Source: an uncultured Saccharospirillaceae bacterium (GTDB lineage Bacteria; Bacteroidota; Bacteroidia; Flavobacteriales_D; CAJJDF01). From it: a DNA stretch of 64,000 nt. Made by a program: the position numbers and the translations under genes. Position 1 is the stretch's first letter, and each line of letters opens with the position of its first letter. Shown piece by piece: positions 3,661-59,377 of the stretch. Location of the stretch: contig CATLPG010000007.1 of assembly GCA_950054195.1 (NCBI GenBank), positions 1,579 to 65,578 on the forward strand, in the 5' to 3' direction. The notes beneath the pieces were generated by a model that saw only the letters and a program-made list of their open reading frames with translations, was not told the origin of the DNA and did no database searches.

Positions 3661-4803
3661 TTAATTACAAATTGCTGATATATCATCAATACCCCAATAA
3701 TCAAACCCTGATCCACTGGAAGCATAGACCACCCATCTCATTTTAAAATCATCAGTCAAAGGGCCAGGAATAGTTGTTGTGTATTGAGTATACACATTTG
3801 GAGCAAACACTCCAGCGTTGGTGGTAAATAAGGTAACCCAATTTGTGCCATCAAAATACTCAAAATCGAAGCCCTCTCCGTTATCAGGTGTTTCTCCACA
3901 TACAGCATCATCACCAGCAATGTACCAAAAAGAAACATCAATTGAGGTACAACCAGAGGCATCTAAATCATTTGTGGCAAAACCAGTTCCTGGATCACCC
4001 CCTATAAGTATAGATTCTGTACCAGAGCGTGAACATAAGCTTGTAGTAGCAAAAGTACCTGAAGAGACCCACTCCGAAGGAATACCATCTTCAAAGCCTT
4101 GAAATAAAGGAAAATCAGGATTGCAGTTTTTAGGTAACTCAGGTTGAATCATAATTTTATCTGTGGAGGGTACAAAAAATAAATATTGTAAAACAGGAGT
4201 GTTGAATGAGCAAAAGTGTTGATCCTCCCTAACAACACCACCCGAAGATGAGTCCAGTACATACCAGTATCCGACATCTAACCCATGATTAACGGATACA
4301 TACCCCGTATTTTGTATTCTAATAGTATCAGCAGAAGGAGTTGCAACTAACAAAGCTTCAGCTGCCATAGAAATATTCGTGTCAATAGCTAACTCATACC
4401 TAGAAGTGTTTTCATCGTAATAAACAGGAAGTATTTCATAAGCAGGAATTGTAAAACCATGTGTAGGCTCTTCAACATTATAAAGATTATCAATACTGGT
4501 GTCGGGTACGAAAATGTTATGGTTTAGTATACCTCCTTCATAAATTCTCAAGTTACCAAAATCATAGGTCATTGAATCAATAATTTCATTCGTTGAGTCG
4601 GTAAGATCAGGATGGTATGTAGTATGTATGCTATCAATATTAAAGAATATTAAAGAATCATTTCTACCAACTATACTATCAAAACCTGTTGTTTGCTTAA
4701 ATAAACGAATTCTTGTATTGGTTCTATTTTGAGATACCCCGGTAAGTGGTATTATTATAGATAACACAATCAATAGTATAATATGTTGTTTTAAATGTTT
4801 CAT
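3661..4803 (-). CDS. Secreted hypothetical protein, paralog 1 of 3: conserved N-module plus canonical MAM-like C-terminal domain
   Basis: Has a signal peptide. Shares RLFKQTTGFDSIV, HGFTIPAY, IQNTGY..VNHGLDVGYWYVLD, QYLFF and IQPELP with the next two ORFs. The C-terminus FEDGIPSEW...SFWY...FDFEYFDG..W...FDYWGIDDISAI fits the MAM pattern. Confidence 0.7.
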   Translation of the reverse strand: MKHLKQHIILLIVLSIIIPLTGVSQNRTNTRIRLFKQTTGFDSIVGRNDSLIFFNIDSIHTTYHPDLTDSTNEIIDSMTYDFGNLRIYEGGILNHNIFVPDTSIDNLYNVEEPTHGFTIPAYEILPVYYDENTSRYELAIDTNISMAAEALLVATPSADTIRIQNTGYVSVNHGLDVGYWYVLDSSSGGVVREDQHFCSFNTPVLQYLFFVPSTDKIMIQPELPKNCNPDFPLFQGFEDGIPSEWVSSGTFATTSLCSRSGTESILIGGDPGTGFATNDLDASGCTSIDVSFWYIAGDDAVCGETPDNGEGFDFEYFDGTNWVTLFTTNAGVFAPNVYTQYTTTIPGPLTDDFKMRWVVYASSGSGFDYWGIDDISAICN

Positions 4804-4804
4804 C

Positions 4805-5977
4805 CTATAATGTTCTAACTCTCATTTGTTCTAAATAAACATCCTCAGCACCACCGCTATCAAAAAAGACGGCCCTAAGTTGTACATTGCTCACTCCAGC
4901 AACTGAAACTGTTAACGTAGCATCACCATTGCCAAAATCATCAAATAAATCAACAATGTCTATCCATGCTCCTCCATCTAAACGGTATTGTATATTTAAA
5001 TTATCTGCTCCATCCAGATTGCTTTCCTCACGATAATCTACAAAAATTTCTACATCGCCATCGTGGCAAAAAACATCAATCTGTTCTGATAACCAAGTGG
5101 TAGTTCCTCCACTCATATAAAATTCCCAGTTAAAATCATTACGAGTCTCTCCCGTTCCTGTGGTTGTTCGAGACCAAGAGGTTGGTCCATTATCAACAGT
5201 AGAATTGTTTGGTAATCCATCAAAGCCTTCGTTCCAATCCCTACTAAAGTCATCCTGGCACCTGTTTGGACAGTCTAGCGGTTTTTCTGGCTGTAGAAGT
5301 ATTGTTTCAGGAGATGACGTGTAAAAAAGATATTGAATATGATGATCTTCATTTTCACAAGTGTCTACTGCAGGTATTACATTTCCTGGTGTTAAGGTGT
5401 CTAATATGTACCAAACACCTACAGGTAATCCATGATTTAAATTTAAATAACCGGTGTTTTGTATTTCTATAGTATTTAAGTTAGGGGCTCGTGTCATTAG
5501 TACATCTGCCGTTCGGTGCAAGGAATCAGCAAGAGCAAGTTCATATTGACTAGTAGTTGTATCAAAATACAGAGGTAGAACACCGTATGATGGTACCGTA
5601 AATCCATGAAGTAGCTGAGTTACTCTAAAAAAGTTATCTCTACCTGTAATTATTTCTGCTTTAAACACTCTGTCATCAGCATCAATAACATATAGGGTAT
5701 CATTTAAAAAATAAGCACTATCACTTATTTCATTTAATGTATCTAAGTCAGACAATTCAACTGTCAAAACAGTATCTCTTGTGTAGAAATACATTGAATC
5801 AGCTGTAGTCAATAAAAAGCTACTTCTTTTAGTAACAATGCTGTCAAATCCTGTGGTTTGTTGGAAAAGCCTCAGTTTGGTGTTTTGAGAAAAACTATTA
5901 GTCTTAAACCCAATAGTGAAAGCAAAAACTAAGAAGCCTAATGTTATTAAACGATATTTTAAAAAAGTATTAGTCAT
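4805..5977 (-). CDS. Secreted hypothetical protein, paralog 2 of 3: conserved N-module plus YRLDGGAW-type jelly-roll C-terminal domain
   Basis: Starts 1 nt from the downstream paralog. Has a signal peptide. Motifs are RLFQQTTGFDSIV, HGFTVPSYGVLPLYFD, IQNTGYLNLNHGLPVGVWYILD and QYLFY. C-terminus reads W.EGF...W...EQIDV...IQYRLDGGAWIDI...VYLEQMRV. Confidence 0.7.
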   Translation of the reverse strand: MTNTFLKYRLITLGFLVFAFTIGFKTNSFSQNTKLRLFQQTTGFDSIVTKRSSFLLTTADSMYFYTRDTVLTVELSDLDTLNEISDSAYFLNDTLYVIDADDRVFKAEIITGRDNFFRVTQLLHGFTVPSYGVLPLYFDTTTSQYELALADSLHRTADVLMTRAPNLNTIEIQNTGYLNLNHGLPVGVWYILDTLTPGNVIPAVDTCENEDHHIQYLFYTSSPETILLQPEKPLDCPNRCQDDFSRDWNEGFDGLPNNSTVDNGPTSWSRTTTGTGETRNDFNWEFYMSGGTTTWLSEQIDVFCHDGDVEIFVDYREESNLDGADNLNIQYRLDGGAWIDIVDLFDDFGNGDATLTVSVAGVSNVQLRAVFFDSGGAEDVYLEQMRVRTL

Positions 5978-5980
5978 GCT

Positions 5981-7105
5981 TTAATCTTGTAGTCTAACTC
6001 TATTTATGTAGTGATCTTCTCCACCGCCATTGTCAGTTAAAACTCTAATTTCTAGAGTAGATGAAGTTCCGCTGGCAAATGTAACAGTATGTGTTGTGGT
6101 GCCAAAGTCATTATTATTATACCCAAAAGAAATCCAAGCACCTCCGTCTAATCTGTATTGTGATTCAACATCATCATCTCCTTCCATATTACCTTCTTCG
6201 GATATATCAATAATTATTGTAATATTTCCAGGTACACACTCAATATCGATCGGTGATGTTTGCCAGGTAGAATTATCCATCTCAACAGCTTGTCTACCCG
6301 CATCAACACCATTATCATCAACGGTCCAAGCTGTAGAATCTGTATCAACAGTTGTACCATTTGCTTGTGTCGAAAAATCCTCATCCCAATAGTCTAGGTC
6401 AAAACCTCCGCAGGCAGCGAAAGGATTTAATGTTGTAAGTAAATTAGAAGAATCACACTCTATTGGTTGCTCGGGTTGTATTAATATTTGGTTGGCGTCT
6501 GCTGTGAAAAATAAATATTGAATGGGTTCACCTACTACTAAACACGTATCAAAAGCTGGGATAACACCACCTGGGTTAGCTGTATCTAAAATATACCAAA
6601 TACCTACTTGTAAGCCATGAGTTATATCTAAATACCCAGTGTTTTGTACGAGTATTTGATCTTGATCGATGGAATCTACCATTAAAATATCAGCCGCTTT
6701 ATGAATAGAGTCTGCTTGTGCATATTCATAGGTTCCCGTTGAGTGATTAAAGTACAAAGGTCTTATTCCCCAGCTGGGCAAACGAAAGCCATGGCTAGGT
6801 ATGCTTAACTCGTAATCGTTATCCTTCCCAGCAATGATTTCTACTTTTCTTGTGGTTACAGTATTTTCATAAATTGATAGCGTATCATCTTGGAAACTTA
6901 TTGAATCAAATAGTTCATTTAAAGAATCCAAGTCAAGAGGTCCACCTTTAATTAACGTATCCGATGAATACAAATAAAGGGAGTCGTAGGATGTTACTAT
7001 ACTATCAAAATCATTCGTTTGCTCAAACAATCTAATTTTGGTGTTTTGACCAAAACCAATGGCTGAGCAAATTAAAAAAAAAATAATGTAATAGTATTTT
7101 AACAT
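5981..7105 (-). CDS. Secreted hypothetical protein, paralog 3 of 3: conserved N-module plus YRLDGGAW-type jelly-roll C-terminal domain
   Basis: Lies 3 nt from paralog 2. Has a signal peptide. Motifs are RLFEQTNDFDSIV, HGFRLPSWGIRPLYF, VQNTGYLDITHGLQVGIWYILD and QYLFF. C-terminus reads YWDEDF...W...SPIDI...SQYRLDGGAWISF...HYINRVRL. Confidence 0.7.
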   Translation of the reverse strand: MLKYYYIIFFLICSAIGFGQNTKIRLFEQTNDFDSIVTSYDSLYLYSSDTLIKGGPLDLDSLNELFDSISFQDDTLSIYENTVTTRKVEIIAGKDNDYELSIPSHGFRLPSWGIRPLYFNHSTGTYEYAQADSIHKAADILMVDSIDQDQILVQNTGYLDITHGLQVGIWYILDTANPGGVIPAFDTCLVVGEPIQYLFFTADANQILIQPEQPIECDSSNLLTTLNPFAACGGFDLDYWDEDFSTQANGTTVDTDSTAWTVDDNGVDAGRQAVEMDNSTWQTSPIDIECVPGNITIIIDISEEGNMEGDDDVESQYRLDGGAWISFGYNNNDFGTTTHTVTFASGTSSTLEIRVLTDNGGGEDHYINRVRLQD

Positions 7106-52700: not shown

Positions 52701-53509
52701 ATGGTTGTGAAGCACGAGATACTATTGATATTACTGTTGGAGGTGGAGGTCTTCAAATTGCAGGCCCAGTAGGGCTATGTATTGGAGATACTGTAACCAT
52801 AGAAACAATAACAACTTTGCCAGGTCCCTTAACTTATGATTGGTCACCAGACTTAGAAATTATATCAGGAGAAGGTACTAACGAGATTATTACAGCTCCA
52901 AATGCTTCAACTTGGTATGGAGTTGAGGTAACGGGAGCAAATGGATGTGTATTAAGAGATTCAATTTATATCTATGTTTCTCCATTACCAATTTTAGGAG
53001 TTGAAGCTACCTCTGATTTGGATACAATTGTAAAGGGAGGAGCTGTGGCTATTCATGCTTCACCTGATGGCTATCAGTATAGTTGGTCTCCATCAAACAC
53101 ACTTTCTAGTGGTACAAGTAAAGATCCTGTGGCATCTCCTGATGAAACGACTACTTATACAGTAACTATAACTGATACAGGATGTGTTCGAACAGCAAGC
53201 GTAACAATATACTTAAGAGATGTGATTTGTGGTCCGCCAGATTTATACTTACCGAATGCGTTTACTCCAGATGGAGATGGGAGTAATGATGAATTATTAG
53301 TGAGAGGTAACAACATAGCAGAACTTAAATTTTCTGTATTCCACCGATGGGGCGAGAAAGTTTTTGAAACTACTGATCAAACAAAAGGATGGGACGGTAC
53401 ATTTAAAGGACGTCCTGCTGATCCAGCCGTTTTTGTATACCACTTAGAAGTCACTTGTGTTGGACAGGAAACTTATTTTGAAAAAGGAAACGTAACACTG
53501 ATTAGGTAA
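49757..53509 (+). CDS. Large T9SS type-B cargo protein: beta-propeller-like N-terminal region, PKD domain, four Ig-like modules, gliding-motility-associated C-terminal domain
   Basis: Signal peptide, with a possible true start at ATG 49763. PKD motif WDFGDGATS...H.Y...G.Y.V.L. Four modules of pattern Y.W.P...L......P....T.Y.V. The C-terminus LPNAFTPDGDGSNDELLVRG...GWDGTFKGRPADPAVFVYHLEV is the type-B sorting domain. Confidence 0.85.
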   Translation: MSMEIKRLVYIALLFLIISVNAHAQGYTFIENKGQWADQVFAKAEIEGGYIYFEKDEITYDFYDHEEFERYVDAHHHKESKKPFDRLKCHSYKVQLLGGNLQNFKKDDQTEVYYNYFLGDEPSNWGSKAYGYKKATYSNVYKGINLVYYTSNDGKLKYDFIISPTGNPKNIKLLYKGIDDIKLRKGKLIINTSVNQVVEQKPFAYQLINGEKREVTCNYVLEGNNLSFELPNGYDKTKELIIDPTLEFSTYSGSFSNNFGYTATFDRYGFLYSGSTAFGSSYPTTTGAYDISFNGGIVDVAISKYDTTGTFMIYSTYVGGDNDELPHSMIVNSNNEIFVYGTTSSMNWPTTAGAYDNTFNGGTPTNLQNGLGVNFTNGADMFVFRLSQAGDALQASTLIGGTQNDGLNFTPTVDIRYNYADEVRGEIEIDSDNNIYIVSCTRSDDFPVTAGAFQQAYGGGELDGCVFKMDNQLTTLIWSSFIGGSANDAAYSLALSSTDDPYITGGTVSTDFFTTPGVLQPTYQGGRSDAFVSLIDKSGSSIIYSSYYGSSDYDQSYFIELDRNNNVHLFGQTEHTGGQFIVNAAYSTPSSGQFVTNLTPELDAITWSTVFGSGGGAPNISPTAFLVDVCNKIYLSGWGGATNQFATQNNAITTNGMDITADAYQSTTDGSDFYLMVLEADASNIVYGSYFGGNISDEHVDGGTSRFDRNGKMYQSVCAGCGGNDDFPIEPNPGAVSAVNNNSCNNGVFKFDFLLPITIADFDATPVVCFPDTTYFTNLSLRGTSFEWDFGDGATSTLRDPKHQYTAQGVYDVTLVVSDTTSCNLADTIQKQVTVLASSSFSLGADSICAEQNVQIGTAPTGVPGITYNWTPGNTLSDSTVSNPIAFPSQTTDYVLLISNGTCTDTVYQTVQVTNVELTGANDLFFCEASDTTLLVSSNGTTQTYEWSTDPNFGTVLNPPADSSLFVSVNSDTTFYVRALTNGCEARDTIDITVGGGGLQIAGPVGLCIGDTVTIETITTLPGPLTYDWSPDLEIISGEGTNEIITAPNASTWYGVEVTGANGCVLRDSIYIYVSPLPILGVEATSDLDTIVKGGAVAIHASPDGYQYSWSPSNTLSSGTSKDPVASPDETTTYTVTITDTGCVRTASVTIYLRDVICGPPDLYLPNAFTPDGDGSNDELLVRGNNIAELKFSVFHRWGEKVFETTDQTKGWDGTFKGRPADPAVFVYHLEVTCVGQETYFEKGNVTLIR

Positions 53510-54226
53510 TTATCTGTAGGCTTCATATAAAATAACCAAGCCATCAGCAAAACTATCAACATTTATAGTAAAGCCATTACTGTTGAAAGAAGTTAAAATA
53601 GCAGAAGTTCTTCCTAGGTTATCACCGTTTTGATTAGCATAACGAATACCAATGCAGTGTGAACTTGAAGCATACCTAGAAATATCATTAATAGAATTTC
53701 CATTACCTCCTCCACAAATGACTTGCTGTGATATGATTGGATTATCATTTCTAGCAAATCCTTTCATATAGCCAAAACTATTAGCTATAGTGTTATTATT
53801 GTTTCCTACACCATTATCAGAATTTAAATTATAACTTTCAACATTTGCATAACCAACGAAAGTTACTTGAGATGGTCTAAACGGTAACCCTGTAATAGTT
53901 TGAGATCCAAGACCAGTTATTAGAAACTTACCAACATAAACTCTAGGGCCAGCAACAGTAGTTTTTTTTAAGTCTACAGAATCTCCATCTTCGAGATAGA
54001 TAATCTCGTTTATAGTATCTAAAAAAAGCTTTTGATTGTCAGTGATTTTACCTAACCTTCCGTTTGTGATACCAATTCTATAATCCTCTCTTATGGTATC
54101 CAGGTACATATTTCCTTCATTGGCGGTCCTGGTGTTATTTATATTTTCCAATTGTGTAGAGTCAAAATATTGCCCCATATTAATAGTGGAAATAAACAAA
54201 AAAACTATGAAGAAGATTGATTTCAT
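53510..54226 (-). CDS. Secreted hypothetical protein, tandem paralog B (tail-fibre-like N-terminal motifs, unknown C-terminal domain)
   Basis: Has a signal peptide. About three quarters of residues are identical to the upstream ORF. Motifs are EGNMYLDT..DYRIG, DNQKLFLDTINEIIYLEDGDSVDL, PFRPSQVTFVGYANVES and CGGGNG.SINDISRYASSSHC. Confidence 0.65.
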   Translation of the reverse strand: MKSIFFIVFLFISTINMGQYFDSTQLENINNTRTANEGNMYLDTIREDYRIGITNGRLGKITDNQKLFLDTINEIIYLEDGDSVDLKKTTVAGPRVYVGKFLITGLGSQTITGLPFRPSQVTFVGYANVESYNLNSDNGVGNNNNTIANSFGYMKGFARNDNPIISQQVICGGGNGNSINDISRYASSSHCIGIRYANQNGDNLGRTSAILTSFNSNGFTINVDSFADGLVILYEAYR

Positions 54227-54952
54227 CTATCTATGTGCTTCATATAATATTACTAAACCATCAACAAAGCTATCCACGTTTATTGTAAAGCCATTTGAGT
54301 TAAAAGAAGTCAATGTTGCAGATGTAATACCCAAGTTATCACCATTGTTATTTGCATACCTTATTGCTATGCAATGACTACTAGAAGCGTATCGAGATAT
54401 GTCATTGATAGAACTTCCGTTACCTCCTCCACAAATAACTTGCTCGCTGATTGATCCCCCATCGTTTCTTGCATACCCTTTCATGTAACCAAAACTATTA
54501 GCAATGGTATTGTTATTGTTTCCTACACCATTATCTGAGCTCAAATTGTAGCTTTCAACATTTGCAAAACCAACAAAAGTAATTGAGCTTGGGCGGAAAG
54601 GAAGGCTGCTTATAGTAATATTTCCAGATGAAGTTATTTGAAATTTCCCTGCATAAAATATAGGGCCTGCTACAGAAGATTTCTTAAGGTCTACGGAGTC
54701 TCCATCTTCTAAATAAATAATATCATTAATCGTATCTAGCGAAAGCTTTTGATCATCCGTAACCTTCCCTAATTTGCGGTTCGTTAAGCCAATTCGGTAA
54801 TCTAACTTATTTGTATCAAGATAAAGATCTCCCTCGTTGGCTTGTCTGTTTGTGTTGATAGTTTCAATTTGGGTACTATCAAAATATTGGGTATGAACAC
54901 CAGTGTAAGAGAAAATAAAAACTAAAAATAAATGGAGTACTAATGATTTCAT
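54227..54952 (-). CDS. Secreted hypothetical protein, tandem paralog A
   Basis: Has a signal peptide. Its stop TAG directly abuts the ATG of the next paralog. The motif set matches 53510..54226. Confidence 0.65.
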   Translation of the reverse strand: MKSLVLHLFLVFIFSYTGVHTQYFDSTQIETINTNRQANEGDLYLDTNKLDYRIGLTNRKLGKVTDDQKLSLDTINDIIYLEDGDSVDLKKSSVAGPIFYAGKFQITSSGNITISSLPFRPSSITFVGFANVESYNLSSDNGVGNNNNTIANSFGYMKGYARNDGGSISEQVICGGGNGSSINDISRYASSSHCIAIRYANNNGDNLGITSATLTSFNSNGFTINVDSFVDGLVILYEAHR

Positions 54953-54955
54953 TTT

Positions 54956-56215
54956 TTAAGTTTTTCTCTTTTTCTTTTTAGCAGCAGGGAATAAAATATT
55001 ATTTAATATTAAACGATAGCCAGGAGAGTTTGGGTGTAAGTTTAAATCTGTGGGAGGATCTCCAACAAAATGTTGGTAATCTTCTGGATCATGACCACCA
55101 TAAAATGTCCACTGTCCTTTTCCAAGTGTACCGTGAATATATCGAACAGTACCTAAAGCTTTACTTTCTCCCATCACAGTAACATCCGATTTTATGAGGT
55201 TTTTCTTAAAATCAGTTGTTTGCCCCATAAAACCTTTGATTACATTTACATGGTTTTGACAAAGCATCGTAGGGACGATATCCCACTTAGCTGAAAATTC
55301 AAACAAGCTAAATACATCTTGGTTTTCAGGTAAACGATGCAATGTAGTTCCATCAATGTCTGAAAACTCATACTCCATAGGGTTTGTTCTTAAAGTGAAA
55401 TTTTTAAAGGCAAACGTATTGTTGTAGTTTAACTTTTCCTGAGCCTTTCGATCCATAGGGTCTCCATCAAACATGGATTCACAGATATCTACATTTTGAG
55501 CAGATAAAGCAATGTCATAAGAATCAGTCCCAGAACACATCGTGAATAAAAAACCTCCACCTGCTACAAACTCCTTGATTTTTAATGCTACACCTAACTT
55601 AAGTTCAGAAACTTTTTCAAACCCTAAGCTTTTTGCACTTGCTTCACTTTCTCTTTGTTGCCTTTGATACCAAGGAGCATTACGGTAACTTCTATAAAAT
55701 TTTCCATATTGACCAGTAAAATCTTCATGATGAAGATGCAACCAGTCATATTTTGGTAAAGCCATGTTAATAACTGCTGAATCATAAATAATGTCGTAAG
55801 GGATTTCTGCATAGGTTAAAACCATCGTTACGGCATCATCCCAAGGCATTTTACCATCAGGAGAGTAAACGGCTATCTTGGGTGATTTTTCTAATTTAAC
55901 AACATCTTGATTTACTTCTGGATCTGCAATTTTTTGCTTGATATTGGCAGCTTGAACATCTGCTATGATCTCATAAGACACACCTCTAATGGTAAGTTCT
56001 TTCTCAATATCTTTATAATATTGTATCAAAAAGCTACCACCTCGATAATTAAGTAACCACTCAATTTCAATATCATTTTGAAGTACCCAATACGCAATTC
56101 CATATGCTTTAAGGTGATTCTTCTGATTTTCCTCATCCATGGGGATCAAAATATGCGATCCTTGGACACAAACCGAAGTAAATAAGAATAAGTATATTAG
56201 TAGTTGTCTGTACAT
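54956..56215 (-). CDS. Secreted conserved hypothetical protein, possibly class-I glutamine-amidotransferase-like (ThuA/DJ-1-like) fold; I recall relatives often being annotated 'asparagine synthetase B'
   Basis: Has a signal peptide. PKIAVYSP...PWDDAV...YDWLHLHHEDFTGQ and the candidate nucleophile elbow GGGFLFTMCSGT are present. The C-terminus is a basic tail, AAKKKKRKT. The fold call is an inference. Confidence 0.5.
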   Translation of the reverse strand: MYRQLLIYLFLFTSVCVQGSHILIPMDEENQKNHLKAYGIAYWVLQNDIEIEWLLNYRGGSFLIQYYKDIEKELTIRGVSYEIIADVQAANIKQKIADPEVNQDVVKLEKSPKIAVYSPDGKMPWDDAVTMVLTYAEIPYDIIYDSAVINMALPKYDWLHLHHEDFTGQYGKFYRSYRNAPWYQRQQRESEASAKSLGFEKVSELKLGVALKIKEFVAGGGFLFTMCSGTDSYDIALSAQNVDICESMFDGDPMDRKAQEKLNYNNTFAFKNFTLRTNPMEYEFSDIDGTTLHRLPENQDVFSLFEFSAKWDIVPTMLCQNHVNVIKGFMGQTTDFKKNLIKSDVTVMGESKALGTVRYIHGTLGKGQWTFYGGHDPEDYQHFVGDPPTDLNLHPNSPGYRLILNNILFPAAKKKKRKT

Positions 56216-56307
56216 AATTAAAAATAGTAATTTCTTATATAGGAAACGAAAAATTAGTAAACGGATTGTCTCTTTCTATGTTAAGAATATTTAAAAAAAG
56301 ACGTAAG

Positions 56308-56793
56308 ATGAAAAAGTGTTTTTTAATAATGATTTATCTCCTGTTAGTAAATTCTTTGGTTGGGCAAGAAGACAGTGGTAAGGTTGTGCAAATAGATAAT
56401 CCTAATTATGACCATCAATTAGCTGATAGTTTAGGGGCTGATGATTATGGGATGAAAAGCTATTTTTTAGTGATACTTATAACAGGAAAATCTACAATCA
56501 GCGACAAAGAGAAAGTGAACGAAAGTTTTAGATCTCATATGGATAATATCAATAAATTAGTTGAGCAGAATAAATTGATTGTAGCTGGACCACTAGAAAA
56601 AAATGATAATGGATATAGGGGGATTTTCATTTTCACAGATGTCGAATCTAAAGAAGAGGTCGATGTTTTATTGAAAAATGATGGTGCTATTCAAAATGGC
56701 TTACTGGATTATGAAACTATCAAGTGGTATGGCTCAGCAGCTTTGCCAACTTATTTACCTAATTCGGATAAGATTTGGAAGGTGGAGCCTTAA
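56308..56793 (+). CDS. YciI-like (dimeric alpha-beta barrel) family protein with N-terminal signal peptide
   Basis: YFLVILITGKS...HMDNINKLVEQNKLIVAGPL...GIFIF...SKEEVDVLLKNDGAIQNGLLDYETIKWYG fits the YciI pattern. The track ORF begins at a TTG at 56266. I prefer ATG 56308 (MKKCFLIMIYLLL). Confidence 0.65.
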   Translation: MKKCFLIMIYLLLVNSLVGQEDSGKVVQIDNPNYDHQLADSLGADDYGMKSYFLVILITGKSTISDKEKVNESFRSHMDNINKLVEQNKLIVAGPLEKNDNGYRGIFIFTDVESKEEVDVLLKNDGAIQNGLLDYETIKWYGSAALPTYLPNSDKIWKVEP

Positions 56794-57819
56794 TTAAAGA
56801 GTCTTTTTTGTGTGCTTGTAGTCTTCAAATAATCCAATGAACAACCAATCTGCAAGTGCTTGTCTGTTTTTGTGATCGAGTATTCGTTTTTGGTCTTTTG
56901 GGTTTTTGATATTCCCTAACTCTATATAAACCATTGCAGGATGGGTGTTTTTTACCATATACAAATTAGTTCTTGAACTAACTGTTCCATCATACTCCCT
57001 GTTGGGTTGGTGTTTTTTATATTGTTTTTTAAAAGTTTTAAGTAGGGTGTTAGCTAACTGTTTTCCATTTTTACTTTTTTTATGATGATAAAAAAAGACG
57101 TCAATATTTTTCTTTTTACTCCTGCTATCAATATGAATTGTTACCAAACGTTGATGCCGAGGCTTGTGTGTTTTGTAGAGTTTATTGATTGTTTTTGTAC
57201 GTTGTTTTAGTCTTGCTAGTTGTCCAAGAGGTATTTTTTCGTTTGGATGATTGTACTCGTCATGATCTATTTCTAATAGTTTTTCATCTCTAATTCCATC
57301 TGTGGAGTCTTTGATAATTAAATATACTTTTGCTCCATAGGAGAGTAAGTTTTTTGCGAGTCGTAAAGTCACATCATAAGCATATTCGTCTTCACTAATT
57401 AGCTGTTTGGAATACGTAGTTATTGCGCCAGGGTCAGGTCCACCATGACCAGAAACCAAATAAAAAACTGTTCCACTTAAAGAGTCACTAATTATTTCAA
57501 CGTCTTGATACTCTTTTCCAAAAATCGGATATGAAGTAACCGTTGGAGTAGATGGTTTTTCAACTATAGGTAATAAATAAGTTTCACCTATAATTAACCC
57601 GTTATCATTTATTAATTGATCTTTATTTAAATCAATAAATGTTTGATAATAATCAGTTATAGAAAGATTGTGTTTTTCCAGCACACTATAAATACCATCA
57701 CCACTTTTAGCAATATATTTTTTGTGCGTTTTTTGACTGTAGCCTAGAGAGCATCCAGCAAAAACTAAAGTGAATAAAGTGAATAAAATAAGCTTTGTTA
57801 ATTTAGAAAGGAGCATCAT
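56794..57819 (-). CDS. N-acetylmuramoyl-L-alanine amidase (Amidase_3) lipoprotein with LysM-like domain
   Basis: Lipobox VFAGC-S after MMLLSKLTKLILF. A LysM-like stretch is YIAKSGDGIYSVLEKHNLS. The amidase core is SGHGGPDPGA...VTIHIDS...ELGN. The longest ORF (to 57873) would overlap dnaB by 70 nt, so the start at 57819/57816 is preferred. Confidence 0.8.
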   Translation of the reverse strand: MMLLSKLTKLILFTLFTLVFAGCSLGYSQKTHKKYIAKSGDGIYSVLEKHNLSITDYYQTFIDLNKDQLINDNGLIIGETYLLPIVEKPSTPTVTSYPIFGKEYQDVEIISDSLSGTVFYLVSGHGGPDPGAITTYSKQLISEDEYAYDVTLRLAKNLLSYGAKVYLIIKDSTDGIRDEKLLEIDHDEYNHPNEKIPLGQLARLKQRTKTINKLYKTHKPRHQRLVTIHIDSRSKKKNIDVFFYHHKKSKNGKQLANTLLKTFKKQYKKHQPNREYDGTVSSRTNLYMVKNTHPAMVYIELGNIKNPKDQKRILDHKNRQALADWLFIGLFEDYKHTKKTL

Positions 57820-59377
57820 CCCCTTGTTCAAAAAAGTCATTGCCTCCACCAAAGTCGTCATCATCAAAATCATTCATTTTAGAAGGCATGGTCATTGTTC
57901 CTGAATTATCAAAATCATTACTTGGACTTAGCGGATTGAAATCATCTCCGCCAAACTCATCTAAATTTTCAAATTTGGCGTACTGACCAATAAACTTAAG
58001 TTTAACATTTTCTAATGAACCGTTTCTGTGCTTAGCAATGATAATTTCACCAGTACCTAATGTGGAATTTCCATCTTCGTCTTCTGTGATTCCATAATAT
58101 TCTGGACGATAGATAAAGGAAACAATATCTGCATCTTGCTCAATCGCACCAGATTCCCTTAAATCAGATAACATTGGTCGTTTATCACCCCCTCTGGTCT
58201 CAACCGAACGGCTTAACTGTGATAATGCGATAATTGGGACATTTAACTCCTTTGCAACAGTTTTAATAGACCGCGAAATCATCGAAATTTCTTGCTCACG
58301 ATTTCCTTTTGATTCTCCACCTCCAGTCATTAATTGCAAATAATCTATAATGATTAAATCAATATCGTGTTGTGCTTTTAGTCTTCTCGCTTTTGCTCTA
58401 AATTCAAAAATAGAAAGGGCGGGAGTATCATCAATAAATATTGGTGCTTCTGATAACCTACCAATTCTAGCGTGTAATTGTTGAAACTCGTGTGGAGCTA
58501 GGTTTCCTTTTCTAAGTTTTTCAGCAGGAATTTCTGTTTCTCCAGAAATCAAACGATTTACCAGCTGTACGGAACTCATCTCTAGAGAAAAAACTGCTAC
58601 AGGTTTATTAAATTGAACAGCTGTGTTTCTTGCCATGGAAAGGACAAAAGCTGTTTTACCCATACCAGGACGAGCAGCTAAAACAACCATGTCTGATCGT
58701 TGCCAACCAGAGGTAACTCTATCTAATGCAGTAAAACCAGTAGGTATACCGCTAATCCCTCCTTCGTTATTTTGAGCATTCTCTATCTCTTCAATAGCTT
58801 GTTGCATGATTTTACTCATGCTGTCGTAGTTTTTACGGATATTTCCTTCCGCAACTTTAAATAAGTTCGTCTCAGCTTTGTCTAATAGGTCAAATACATC
58901 CGTAGTTTCATCGTAAGCAGCTTTAATAGTGTCTGATGAAATTCTTATCAATTCTCTTTGGATAAACTTTTGGGCGATAATACGTGCGTGGTGTTCAACA
59001 TTTGCAGCAGATGCAACTCGATTTGTTAACTGACTAATATAATAAGCACCACCAACAAACTCTAACTCGCCTCGTTGCCTTAATTCTTGAGTTACAGTTA
59101 ATAAGTCGATAGCTTCACCTTTACCAAATAAGTCTTTGATAACGCTGTAAATTTTTTGGTGAGCCTCTTTATAAAAACTTTCAGGCTGTAATACATCAAT
59201 CGCATCATTAACCGCATTTTTTTCTAGCATCAATGCTCCTAAAACAGCTTCTTCAAAGTCAACTGCTTGAGGTGGAACTCTTCCTGATTCATTATAAAAA
59301 TTAGCATTGCTTTTTTTTCTAATGCTTCTTTTATTAGAAGGAGTTGTAGGGCGTATGTCATTTGATGATTCATCCAT
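57803..59377 (-). CDS. dnaB: Replicative DNA helicase DnaB with N-terminal extension and acidic C-terminal tail
   Basis: PPQAVDFEEAVLGALML, Walker A ARPGMGKTAF, Walker B IIDYLQLM, and SQLSR...RP.LSDLRESG.IEQDAD. Confidence 0.95.
   Translation of the reverse strand: MDESSNDIRPTTPSNKRSIRKKSNANFYNESGRVPPQAVDFEEAVLGALMLEKNAVNDAIDVLQPESFYKEAHQKIYSVIKDLFGKGEAIDLLTVTQELRQRGELEFVGGAYYISQLTNRVASAANVEHHARIIAQKFIQRELIRISSDTIKAAYDETTDVFDLLDKAETNLFKVAEGNIRKNYDSMSKIMQQAIEEIENAQNNEGGISGIPTGFTALDRVTSGWQRSDMVVLAARPGMGKTAFVLSMARNTAVQFNKPVAVFSLEMSSVQLVNRLISGETEIPAEKLRKGNLAPHEFQQLHARIGRLSEAPIFIDDTPALSIFEFRAKARRLKAQHDIDLIIIDYLQLMTGGGESKGNREQEISMISRSIKTVAKELNVPIIALSQLSRSVETRGGDKRPMLSDLRESGAIEQDADIVSFIYRPEYYGITEDEDGNSTLGTGEIIIAKHRNGSLENVKLKFIGQYAKFENLDEFGGDDFNPLSPSNDFDNSGTMTMPSKMNDFDDDDFGGGNDFFEQGDDAPF

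Follow-up and report, generated by a model that had tools for sequence, protein, structure and literature searches.

An exported GATase1-like candidate of Bacteroidota and a neighbouring pair of fibre-head paralogues, probably a lineage-specific juxtaposition

Triad glutamine amidotransferases (GATases) carry an oxyanion loop, a Cys elbow and an HPE motif, in that order along the chain. Asparagine synthetase B (AsnB) is a cytoplasmic enzyme of ~550 amino acids (aa) with an N-terminal Cys nucleophile, and proteins of the PBP5/PBP6 type of Escherichia coli are held by C-terminal amphipathic membrane anchors. These systems, together with the small secreted PTL_trimer proteins of Flavobacteriia and with phage fibre tips, are those against which we compare three minus-strand genes of an uncultured member of the Bacteroidota, located in a stretch of 64,000 nucleotides (nt) of contig CATLPG010000007.1 (positions 1,579 to 65,578; hereafter the window). 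The genes encode a protein of 419 aa with a putative class I GATase-like (GATase1-like) fold and two paralogues of 241 and 238 aa with a candidate ligand-binding head, all three predicted to be exported. The locus as a whole is best explained, with moderate confidence, as two unrelated gene families juxtaposed in this lineage only, rather than as a dedicated three-part system.

Gene order and co-occurrence of the three genes

The three genes occupy the following open reading frames (ORFs):
54956..56215, minus strand: gene of the 419-aa protein (from the ORF, homologues, fold matches and conservation)
54227..54952, minus strand: gene of the 241-aa paralogue (from the ORF list)
53510..54226, minus strand: gene of the 238-aa paralogue (from the ORF list)

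Consistent with the original prediction, which described three minus-strand genes set apart by a 3-nt gap and by a stop codon abutting an ATG, the junction between the 419-aa and 241-aa genes reads TAA-AAA-ATG (gap of 3 nt), and that between the 241-aa and 238-aa genes shows a TAG followed at once by ATG (gap of 0 nt). Since the spacing is this tight and no convincing terminator was found between the three genes, they are probably co-transcribed in the window organism.

The original prediction further joined the three products, an enzyme and two partners, into a functional unit, and proposed co-occurrence in other genomes as its test. The survey was based on one genome per species, with a homologue of the 419-aa protein in at least 596 genomes, and relatives of the paralogues were sought within 4 kb of that homologue in the best 80 species-level loci. 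None of these loci (0/80) holds such a relative. In the reverse direction, a homologue of the 419-aa protein occurs in only 2 of the 84 loci that have a paralogue relative, namely a contig identical to that of the window organism and a contig of a close sister lineage. The trio is therefore not kept together beyond the close lineage of the window, and on these counts the reading as a functional unit is refuted by comparative genomics.

Normally standing alone, the gene of the 419-aa protein belongs to the core genes of Bacteroidota. In 39 of the 80 loci the gene directly before it on the same strand is dnaB, with a median gap of ~40 nt, so that about half of the sampled homologues directly follow this gene, unlike in the window lineage. 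Apart from dnaB, the recurrent neighbours comprise housekeeping genes and a convergent gene whose large product has no known function. A recurrent synthase neighbour was not found in the sampled loci, and the genomic context of a family member with a C-terminal sorting domain of the type IX secretion system (T9SS) gave no functional hint.

In the window itself, an Amidase_3 gene on the minus strand and an oppositely oriented YCII-domain gene (56266-57873) separate dnaB from the 419-aa gene, the start of the Amidase_3 ORF overlapping the end of dnaB by ~70 nt. On the downstream side lies a convergent plus-strand gene for a 1250-aa DUF7948/PKD/CHU_C protein (T9SS type B cargo). Its stop codon and that of the 238-aa gene abut directly at 53507-53512, which leaves zero intergenic room for terminators between the two convergent genes.

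The 419-aa protein and its candidate active site

The 419-aa protein belongs to a large family that lacks a Pfam domain, with more than 8000 close homologues forming 1633 clusters at 50% identity. Across the phylum, members occur in Flavobacteriales, Sphingobacteriales (Pedobacter, Mucilaginibacter), Cytophagales (Spirosoma, Fulvivirga, Marivirga) and Chitinophagales. The 80 species-level homologues match the window protein at 63–71% identity, and the DnaB proteins of the same loci show 57–72%; conservation is thus at about the level of DnaB, which is unusually strong for a protein predicted to be exported. Four loci (L021, L035, L068 and L091) come from metagenome-assembled genome records labelled Desulfobacterales, Competibacteraceae, Syntrophothermus or Burkholderiales and hold a 65–67% identical homologue, mostly with a Bacteroidota-like dnaB adjoining; these contigs are probably mis-binned or mislabelled.

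Searches of Pfam, NCBIfam, PHROG, PADLOC and PDB sequences returned nothing usable for any of the three window proteins, and a literature search for the 419-aa family, PTL_trimer and secreted GATase-like T9SS cargo found nothing relevant. In databases the family is labelled 'hypothetical' or 'asparagine synthetase B', and its long forms 'T9SS type A sorting domain-containing protein'. Identity with AsnB is rejected, as no match to a class II (Ntn) GATase or Asn_synthase domain is seen in Pfam or NCBIfam. The family shares only the label with AsnB, the window protein having 419 aa and a signal peptide, and by its domain content the label is a misannotation. An MliR-regulated 'asparagine synthase B' gene of Bizionia could not be tied to the family.

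The features of the protein discussed below are, in part as predictions:
within 54956..56215, minus strand: signal peptide (aa 1-19), small α/β N-domain (aa 20-105), GATase1-like core with a long insertion (aa 106-400) and polybasic tail
55709..55732, minus strand: HHEDFTGQ codons (aa 162-169), in the loop after the third core strand, the place of the oxyanion loop in triad GATases
55535..55537, minus strand: codon of Cys227, candidate nucleophile in FLFTMCSGT (from conservation and a modelled strand–helix elbow)
55082..55096, minus strand: GHDPE codons (aa 374-378), candidate His and acid residues in a motif like the HPE of triad GATases
54959..54985, minus strand: codons of the polybasic tail AAKKKKRKT, with its conserved ending KT

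All motifs quoted in the original prediction are found in the translated ORFs. In the 419-aa protein they fall at residues 112-119 (PKIAVYSP), 156-169 (YDWLHLHHEDFTGQ) and 222-230 (FLFTMCSGT), and AAKKKKRKT forms the C-terminal end. Conservation was read from 81 sequences and, separately, from a diverse alignment of 21. Residues M26, Q31, H34, Y38, H160, H162, H163, E164, D165, F166 and G168 are 100% conserved in the 81 sequences, as are C227, S228, D231, H322, H375, D376, P377 and D379, while E378 is kept in 79 of 81. Cys227 is also present in 20 of the 21 diverse sequences. The sole member without it, the divergent P0262, also lacks His375, His160, His162 and His163. This joint loss argues that Cys227, His375 and the three His residues form one functional site, and P0262 looks like a pseudoenzyme derivative.

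The structure was modelled with AlphaFold2 on a shallow alignment whose sequences are 75–94% identical to the target. The model is poor, with a mean predicted local distance difference test score (pLDDT) of 56; the N-terminal half lies mostly between 55 and 90, the C-terminal half is unmodelled and residues 373-419 fall below 50. Cys227 sits between a modelled strand (222-226) and a helix (229-238), in agreement with the nucleophile elbow that had been proposed for FLFTMCSGT. In a Foldseek search of the PDB with this low-confidence model, the top matches are nearly all to proteins with a class-I-glutamine-amidotransferase-like domain, among them the GH42 trimerisation domain, STM3548, STM1381 and a GH112 phosphorylase (E ~1e-4, probability ~1.0, template modelling (TM) score 0.23–0.33). 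Four divergent members of the family show weak, sub-threshold matches to BPL_N, itself a GATase1-like domain, over the helix–strand–Cys segment. At the sequence level, the GATase, Peptidase_C26 and DJ-1_PfpI models of Pfam and NCBIfam give no match at E up to 1, a profile of the 21 diverse homologues finds only chance matches among PDB sequences, and hhalign of that profile with E. coli PabA gives a probability of 0.1%, that is, no relation. The link to GATase1-like proteins is one of fold and motif, not of family membership. The predicted GATase1-like character thus stands in part: fold matches, the weak BPL_N similarity and the invariant Cys227 and His375 speak for it, and the poor model and the missing sequence link to triad GATases speak against it.

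Along the chain, a strand, the HHEDFTGQ loop, the Cys elbow, a β-hairpin and GGHDPE follow one another, an order that mirrors the succession in triad GATases of oxyanion loop, Cys elbow and HPE motif. We picture the 419-aa protein as a Sec-exported protein of class-I-glutamine-amidotransferase-like α/β fold whose site would comprise Cys227 at the strand–helix elbow, His375 in GGHDPE and the HLHHEDF loop. It would act as a cysteine-dependent hydrolase of the cell envelope, of the amidase or peptidase type, and not as an amidotransferase or an asparagine synthetase. A hydrolase is preferred to an amidotransferase because there is no synthase partner and no access to ATP.

The two ends of the protein bear on where it would act. 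All three window proteins begin with a basic and then a hydrophobic stretch and have a modelled helix at residues 2-16, as expected from the Sec signal peptides of the original prediction, which had also noted that lipobox and T9SS domain are missing. No lipobox is present in any of the three, Cys16 of the 419-aa protein lying in the context TSVC and not being conserved among homologues, and the Pfam scan gives zero matches to a Por_Secre_tail or CHU_C sorting domain. The N-terminal pattern predicts export of all three. Among relatives of the 419-aa protein, one (P0264) has a Tat-type signal and others have T9SS sorting domains, which adds support for export; the predicted place of action of the family is extracytoplasmic, and in some lineages at or beyond the cell surface.

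At the other end, the C terminus is polybasic and ends in KT in 81 of 81 species-level sequences (consensus AAKKKKQKT). In 7 of the 21 divergent relatives a Por_Secre_tail (T9SS type A sorting domain; best E = 7e-15) is appended to the polybasic tail or replaces it. That the final two residues are strictly kept points to a recognition signal and not just to charge. By analogy with known anchors, the amphipathic and polybasic C terminus would hold the protein on a membrane surface, and in some lineages the T9SS sorting domain would send it to the cell surface instead. The 419-aa protein is probably a membrane-associated envelope cysteine hydrolase.

Several points weigh against this assignment. 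The fold rests on low-TM Foldseek matches to a model of pLDDT 56, the spatial proximity of Cys227 and His375 is conjectural as the C-terminal half lacks a confident model, and the protein has no sequence-level link to any enzyme family. The GH42 trimerisation domain and the similar best-matching structures are not known to be catalytic. These points lend some weight to an unlikely but serious alternative, in which the protein is not an enzyme and its GATase1-like domain, like the GH42 trimerisation domain or BPL_N, serves as a scaffold or in binding, with a metal-binding or structural Cys/His cluster. Such a role fits the zero sequence matches to catalytic families and the incomplete retention of Glu378 in divergent members, and the His-rich conserved site (HLHHED with Cys227, His322 and His375) would suit metal binding as well. 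Three observations argue the other way: the Cys follows a modelled β-strand and precedes a helix, as in nucleophile elbows; strand–loop, Cys elbow and hairpin with GGHDPE are ordered as in triad GATases; and a degree of conservation like that of DnaB would be more usual for an active site.

If the protein is indeed an envelope cysteine hydrolase, then an enzyme of this kind has stayed hidden in Bacteroidota behind the 'asparagine synthetase B' label and the lack of a family model. Tentatively, and with low confidence, the family could be a phylum-wide, possibly essential, membrane-tethered Cys-His hydrolase or transferase of GATase1-like type that serves a Bacteroidota-specific step of surface-protein, lipid or cell-wall processing for which an enzyme has yet to be assigned. 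Large, mislabelled and predicted to be exported, with an invariant Cys/His site and about the conservation of a replicative helicase across several Bacteroidota orders, it has the profile of a good candidate for missing steps of envelope biogenesis in this phylum. A correction of its annotation would touch hundreds of genomes.

The tandem paralogues

The two paralogues share a bipartite architecture, in each case on the minus strand:
54668-54889, minus strand: rare N-terminal module of the 241-aa paralogue, after its signal peptide
54230-54667, minus strand: β-sandwich head of the 241-aa paralogue
53951-54175, minus strand: N-terminal module of the 238-aa paralogue
53513-53950, minus strand: head of the 238-aa paralogue

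The proteins are 76% identical over 241 aa and their genes 71% identical, in line with the proposal of an old duplication that left proteins about three quarters identical and clearly diverged DNA. Synonymous sites are near saturation (pS = 0.70) and dN/dS is ~0.1, which shows the duplication to be old and both copies to be under purifying selection. In a distance tree each window copy has the other as its nearest relative, which points to a tandem duplication specific to the window lineage; it would postdate the split from the nearest sampled relative. The two Cys residues that had been reported as conserved are both kept between the paralogues; of the two, Cys174 alone is unchanged throughout the 12-member subfamily, and the wider family keeps neither without exception.

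A homologue search retrieves 366 proteins, of which about a dozen match over the full length and the rest only over the C-terminal ~145 residues, at 45–70% identity. Most of these head-only relatives have N-termini annotated as PF26696 (PTL_trimer) in a precomputed table. An AlphaFold2 model of the head shows a ten-strand β-sandwich with a pLDDT of ~95 over most of its length and ~50 at the N-rich loop near residues 140-150. A fold search of the PDB gives weak matches that include jelly-roll lectins, GH16 enzymes and a phage tailspike. In a viral structure library the best named matches are mostly of the phage tail-fibre, tailspike, Mtd and Peptidase_S74 type (E = 5e-7 to 1e-3), so that the original description of the paralogues as fibre/lectin-like is reasonable. 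Invariant positions in the head (N131, D140, N141, N146, N152, N183, D184, S186, R187, R198 and N203) are for the most part polar and would fit a conserved ligand pocket. The head would be a ligand-binding, probably glycan-binding, domain of the phage-fibre-tip kind, and the paralogues are probably small secreted proteins with a fibre-tip-like binding head, candidate ligand-binders.

The N-terminal module (~75 aa, β-rich) reads QYFDSTQ…NEGDLYLDT…RIGLT.GKLGK…QKLSLDT.N.IIYLEDGDSVDL. It recurs on a 617-aa (E = 7e-15) and a 628-aa (E = 2e-9) protein of the sister lineage and on a few short proteins of 64–125 aa, and is otherwise rare. The two long proteins (locus L008, 3960-7696, minus strand) carry large unrelated C-terminal bodies with no Pfam match. 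That the module is a diverged PTL_trimer domain is rejected, as hhalign of N-module profiles finds nothing; the precomputed table likewise gives no PF26696 match on the window paralogue (P0121). At a locus of Leptobacterium flavescens (L094, JAABOO010000001.1), seven PTL_trimer genes carry the window-type head, PA14 or a weak BclA_C match. Since the N-module occurs on other bodies and PTL_trimer occurs with other heads, both halves of the paralogues are shuffled modules. This locus and one in Flagellimonas maritima (L007, CP030104.1) have arrays of small PTL_trimer proteins that differ by exchanged C-terminal heads; in the latter, a ~390-aa CHU_C gene comes within ~2 nt after a PTL_trimer gene, a pair that occurs twice. 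The paralogues thus document module shuffling among small secreted fibre-head proteins of marine Flavobacteriia; they are unremarkable as a duplication within one lineage and of modest interest as a case of shuffling.

Near the other end of the window (3661-7105, minus strand) lie three tandem paralogous genes of 380, 390 and 374 aa with signal-peptide-like N-termini. They have no Pfam match, on which ground their identity as CHU_C proteins is rejected, and they appear to represent a further uncharacterised secreted family. A distant tie between the paralogues and the gene at 4805, which had been suspected from the short string LDT[LI]N[ED]I, is not borne out: BLASTP between the 241-aa paralogue and the 4805 product gives no significant match (E = 0.27), and comparison through the 617-aa protein of locus L008 finds no similarity. 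The divergent subfamily member P0142 shows a marginal local match of 34 residues to the 5981 product (E = 4e-4, a single post-hoc comparison). The likeness is at most that of a shared short β-hairpin motif.

How, then, do the paralogues stand to the 419-aa protein? An improbable alternative to the juxtaposition of unrelated families is that the three genes do act together, the exported enzyme processing, modifying or assembling the fibre-like proteins or using them as targeting subunits. Two points weigh against the juxtaposition and may leave room for a local functional link: the gaps of 3 nt and 0 nt on one strand, and the sister lineage, in which dnaB, a 420-aa gene and a single 237-aa gene follow one another, the last two 10 nt apart, so that the order of 419-aa type and paralogue is kept. 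All three proteins are, moreover, predicted to be exported. Besides the counts of 0/80 and 2/84, the alternative is opposed by full-length paralogue-type genes elsewhere (60–62% identity), which stand after a ribonucleotide reductase gene or alone, often beside large T9SS cargo genes, and by the far wider spread of the 419-aa family. A further point to be weighed is that no way for the paralogues to cross the outer membrane is recognised, which leaves a surface role for them as conjecture.

That the paralogues are what is left of a prophage or tailocin locus for tail fibres is highly improbable: fold matches dominated by phage tail-fibre, tailspike and Mtd-type proteins and one relative with the source name 'Tail fiber protein' speak for it, and against it stand zero paralogue relatives on 2.9 million viral contigs, a negative PHROG search, housekeeping genes or T9SS cargo as neighbours at every locus examined, Sec signal peptides on both copies, which phage fibres are not known to carry, and the dN/dS of ~0.1 of maintained cellular genes. 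The paralogues are not phage-derived.

Comparison with known systems

Taking the lineage-specific juxtaposition as the preferred explanation, each of the two families has its own nearest described relatives. The paralogues resemble the tips of phage fibres and tailspikes that bind receptors in that their head is a β-sandwich with its best fold matches there and in that they are built of shuffled modules. They differ as cellular genes with Sec signals and in keeping the head and swapping the N-termini, the reverse of the pattern in typical phage fibres. Nearer to them are the PTL_trimer (PF26696) small secreted proteins of Flavobacteriia, with which they share the C-terminal head at the identity given above, a similar size, signal peptides and a tendency to form tandem arrays; unlike these proteins, which have interchangeable heads, the window paralogues carry a separate rare N-module.

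As regards its tail only, the 419-aa protein is comparable with the PBP5/PBP6-type anchors of E. coli, since in both a putatively or actually exported enzyme ends in a short amphipathic or basic C-terminal segment that may hold it on the membrane. The tail has no sequence relationship with these anchors, and its terminal KT could be a recognition signal instead.

The most apt description of the 419-aa family is a variant of the GATase1-like fold class that lacks a family model. Its low-confidence model gives low-TM matches to the α/β fold of the class I GATase-like superfamily (GH42 trimerisation domain, STM3548/STM1381, BPL_N, peptidase C26, DJ-1/PfpI), and with class I GATases, which have a three-layer α/β/α flavodoxin-like fold, it shares a conserved elbow Cys and a His in an H-(D)-P-E motif near the C terminus. 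Unlike those enzymes, the 419-aa protein is predicted to be exported rather than cytoplasmic, has neither a fused nor a partner synthase, carries an extra N-terminal domain and an insertion of ~110 residues between Cys and His, and belongs to a family whose C termini either are polybasic with a final KT or carry a T9SS sorting domain.

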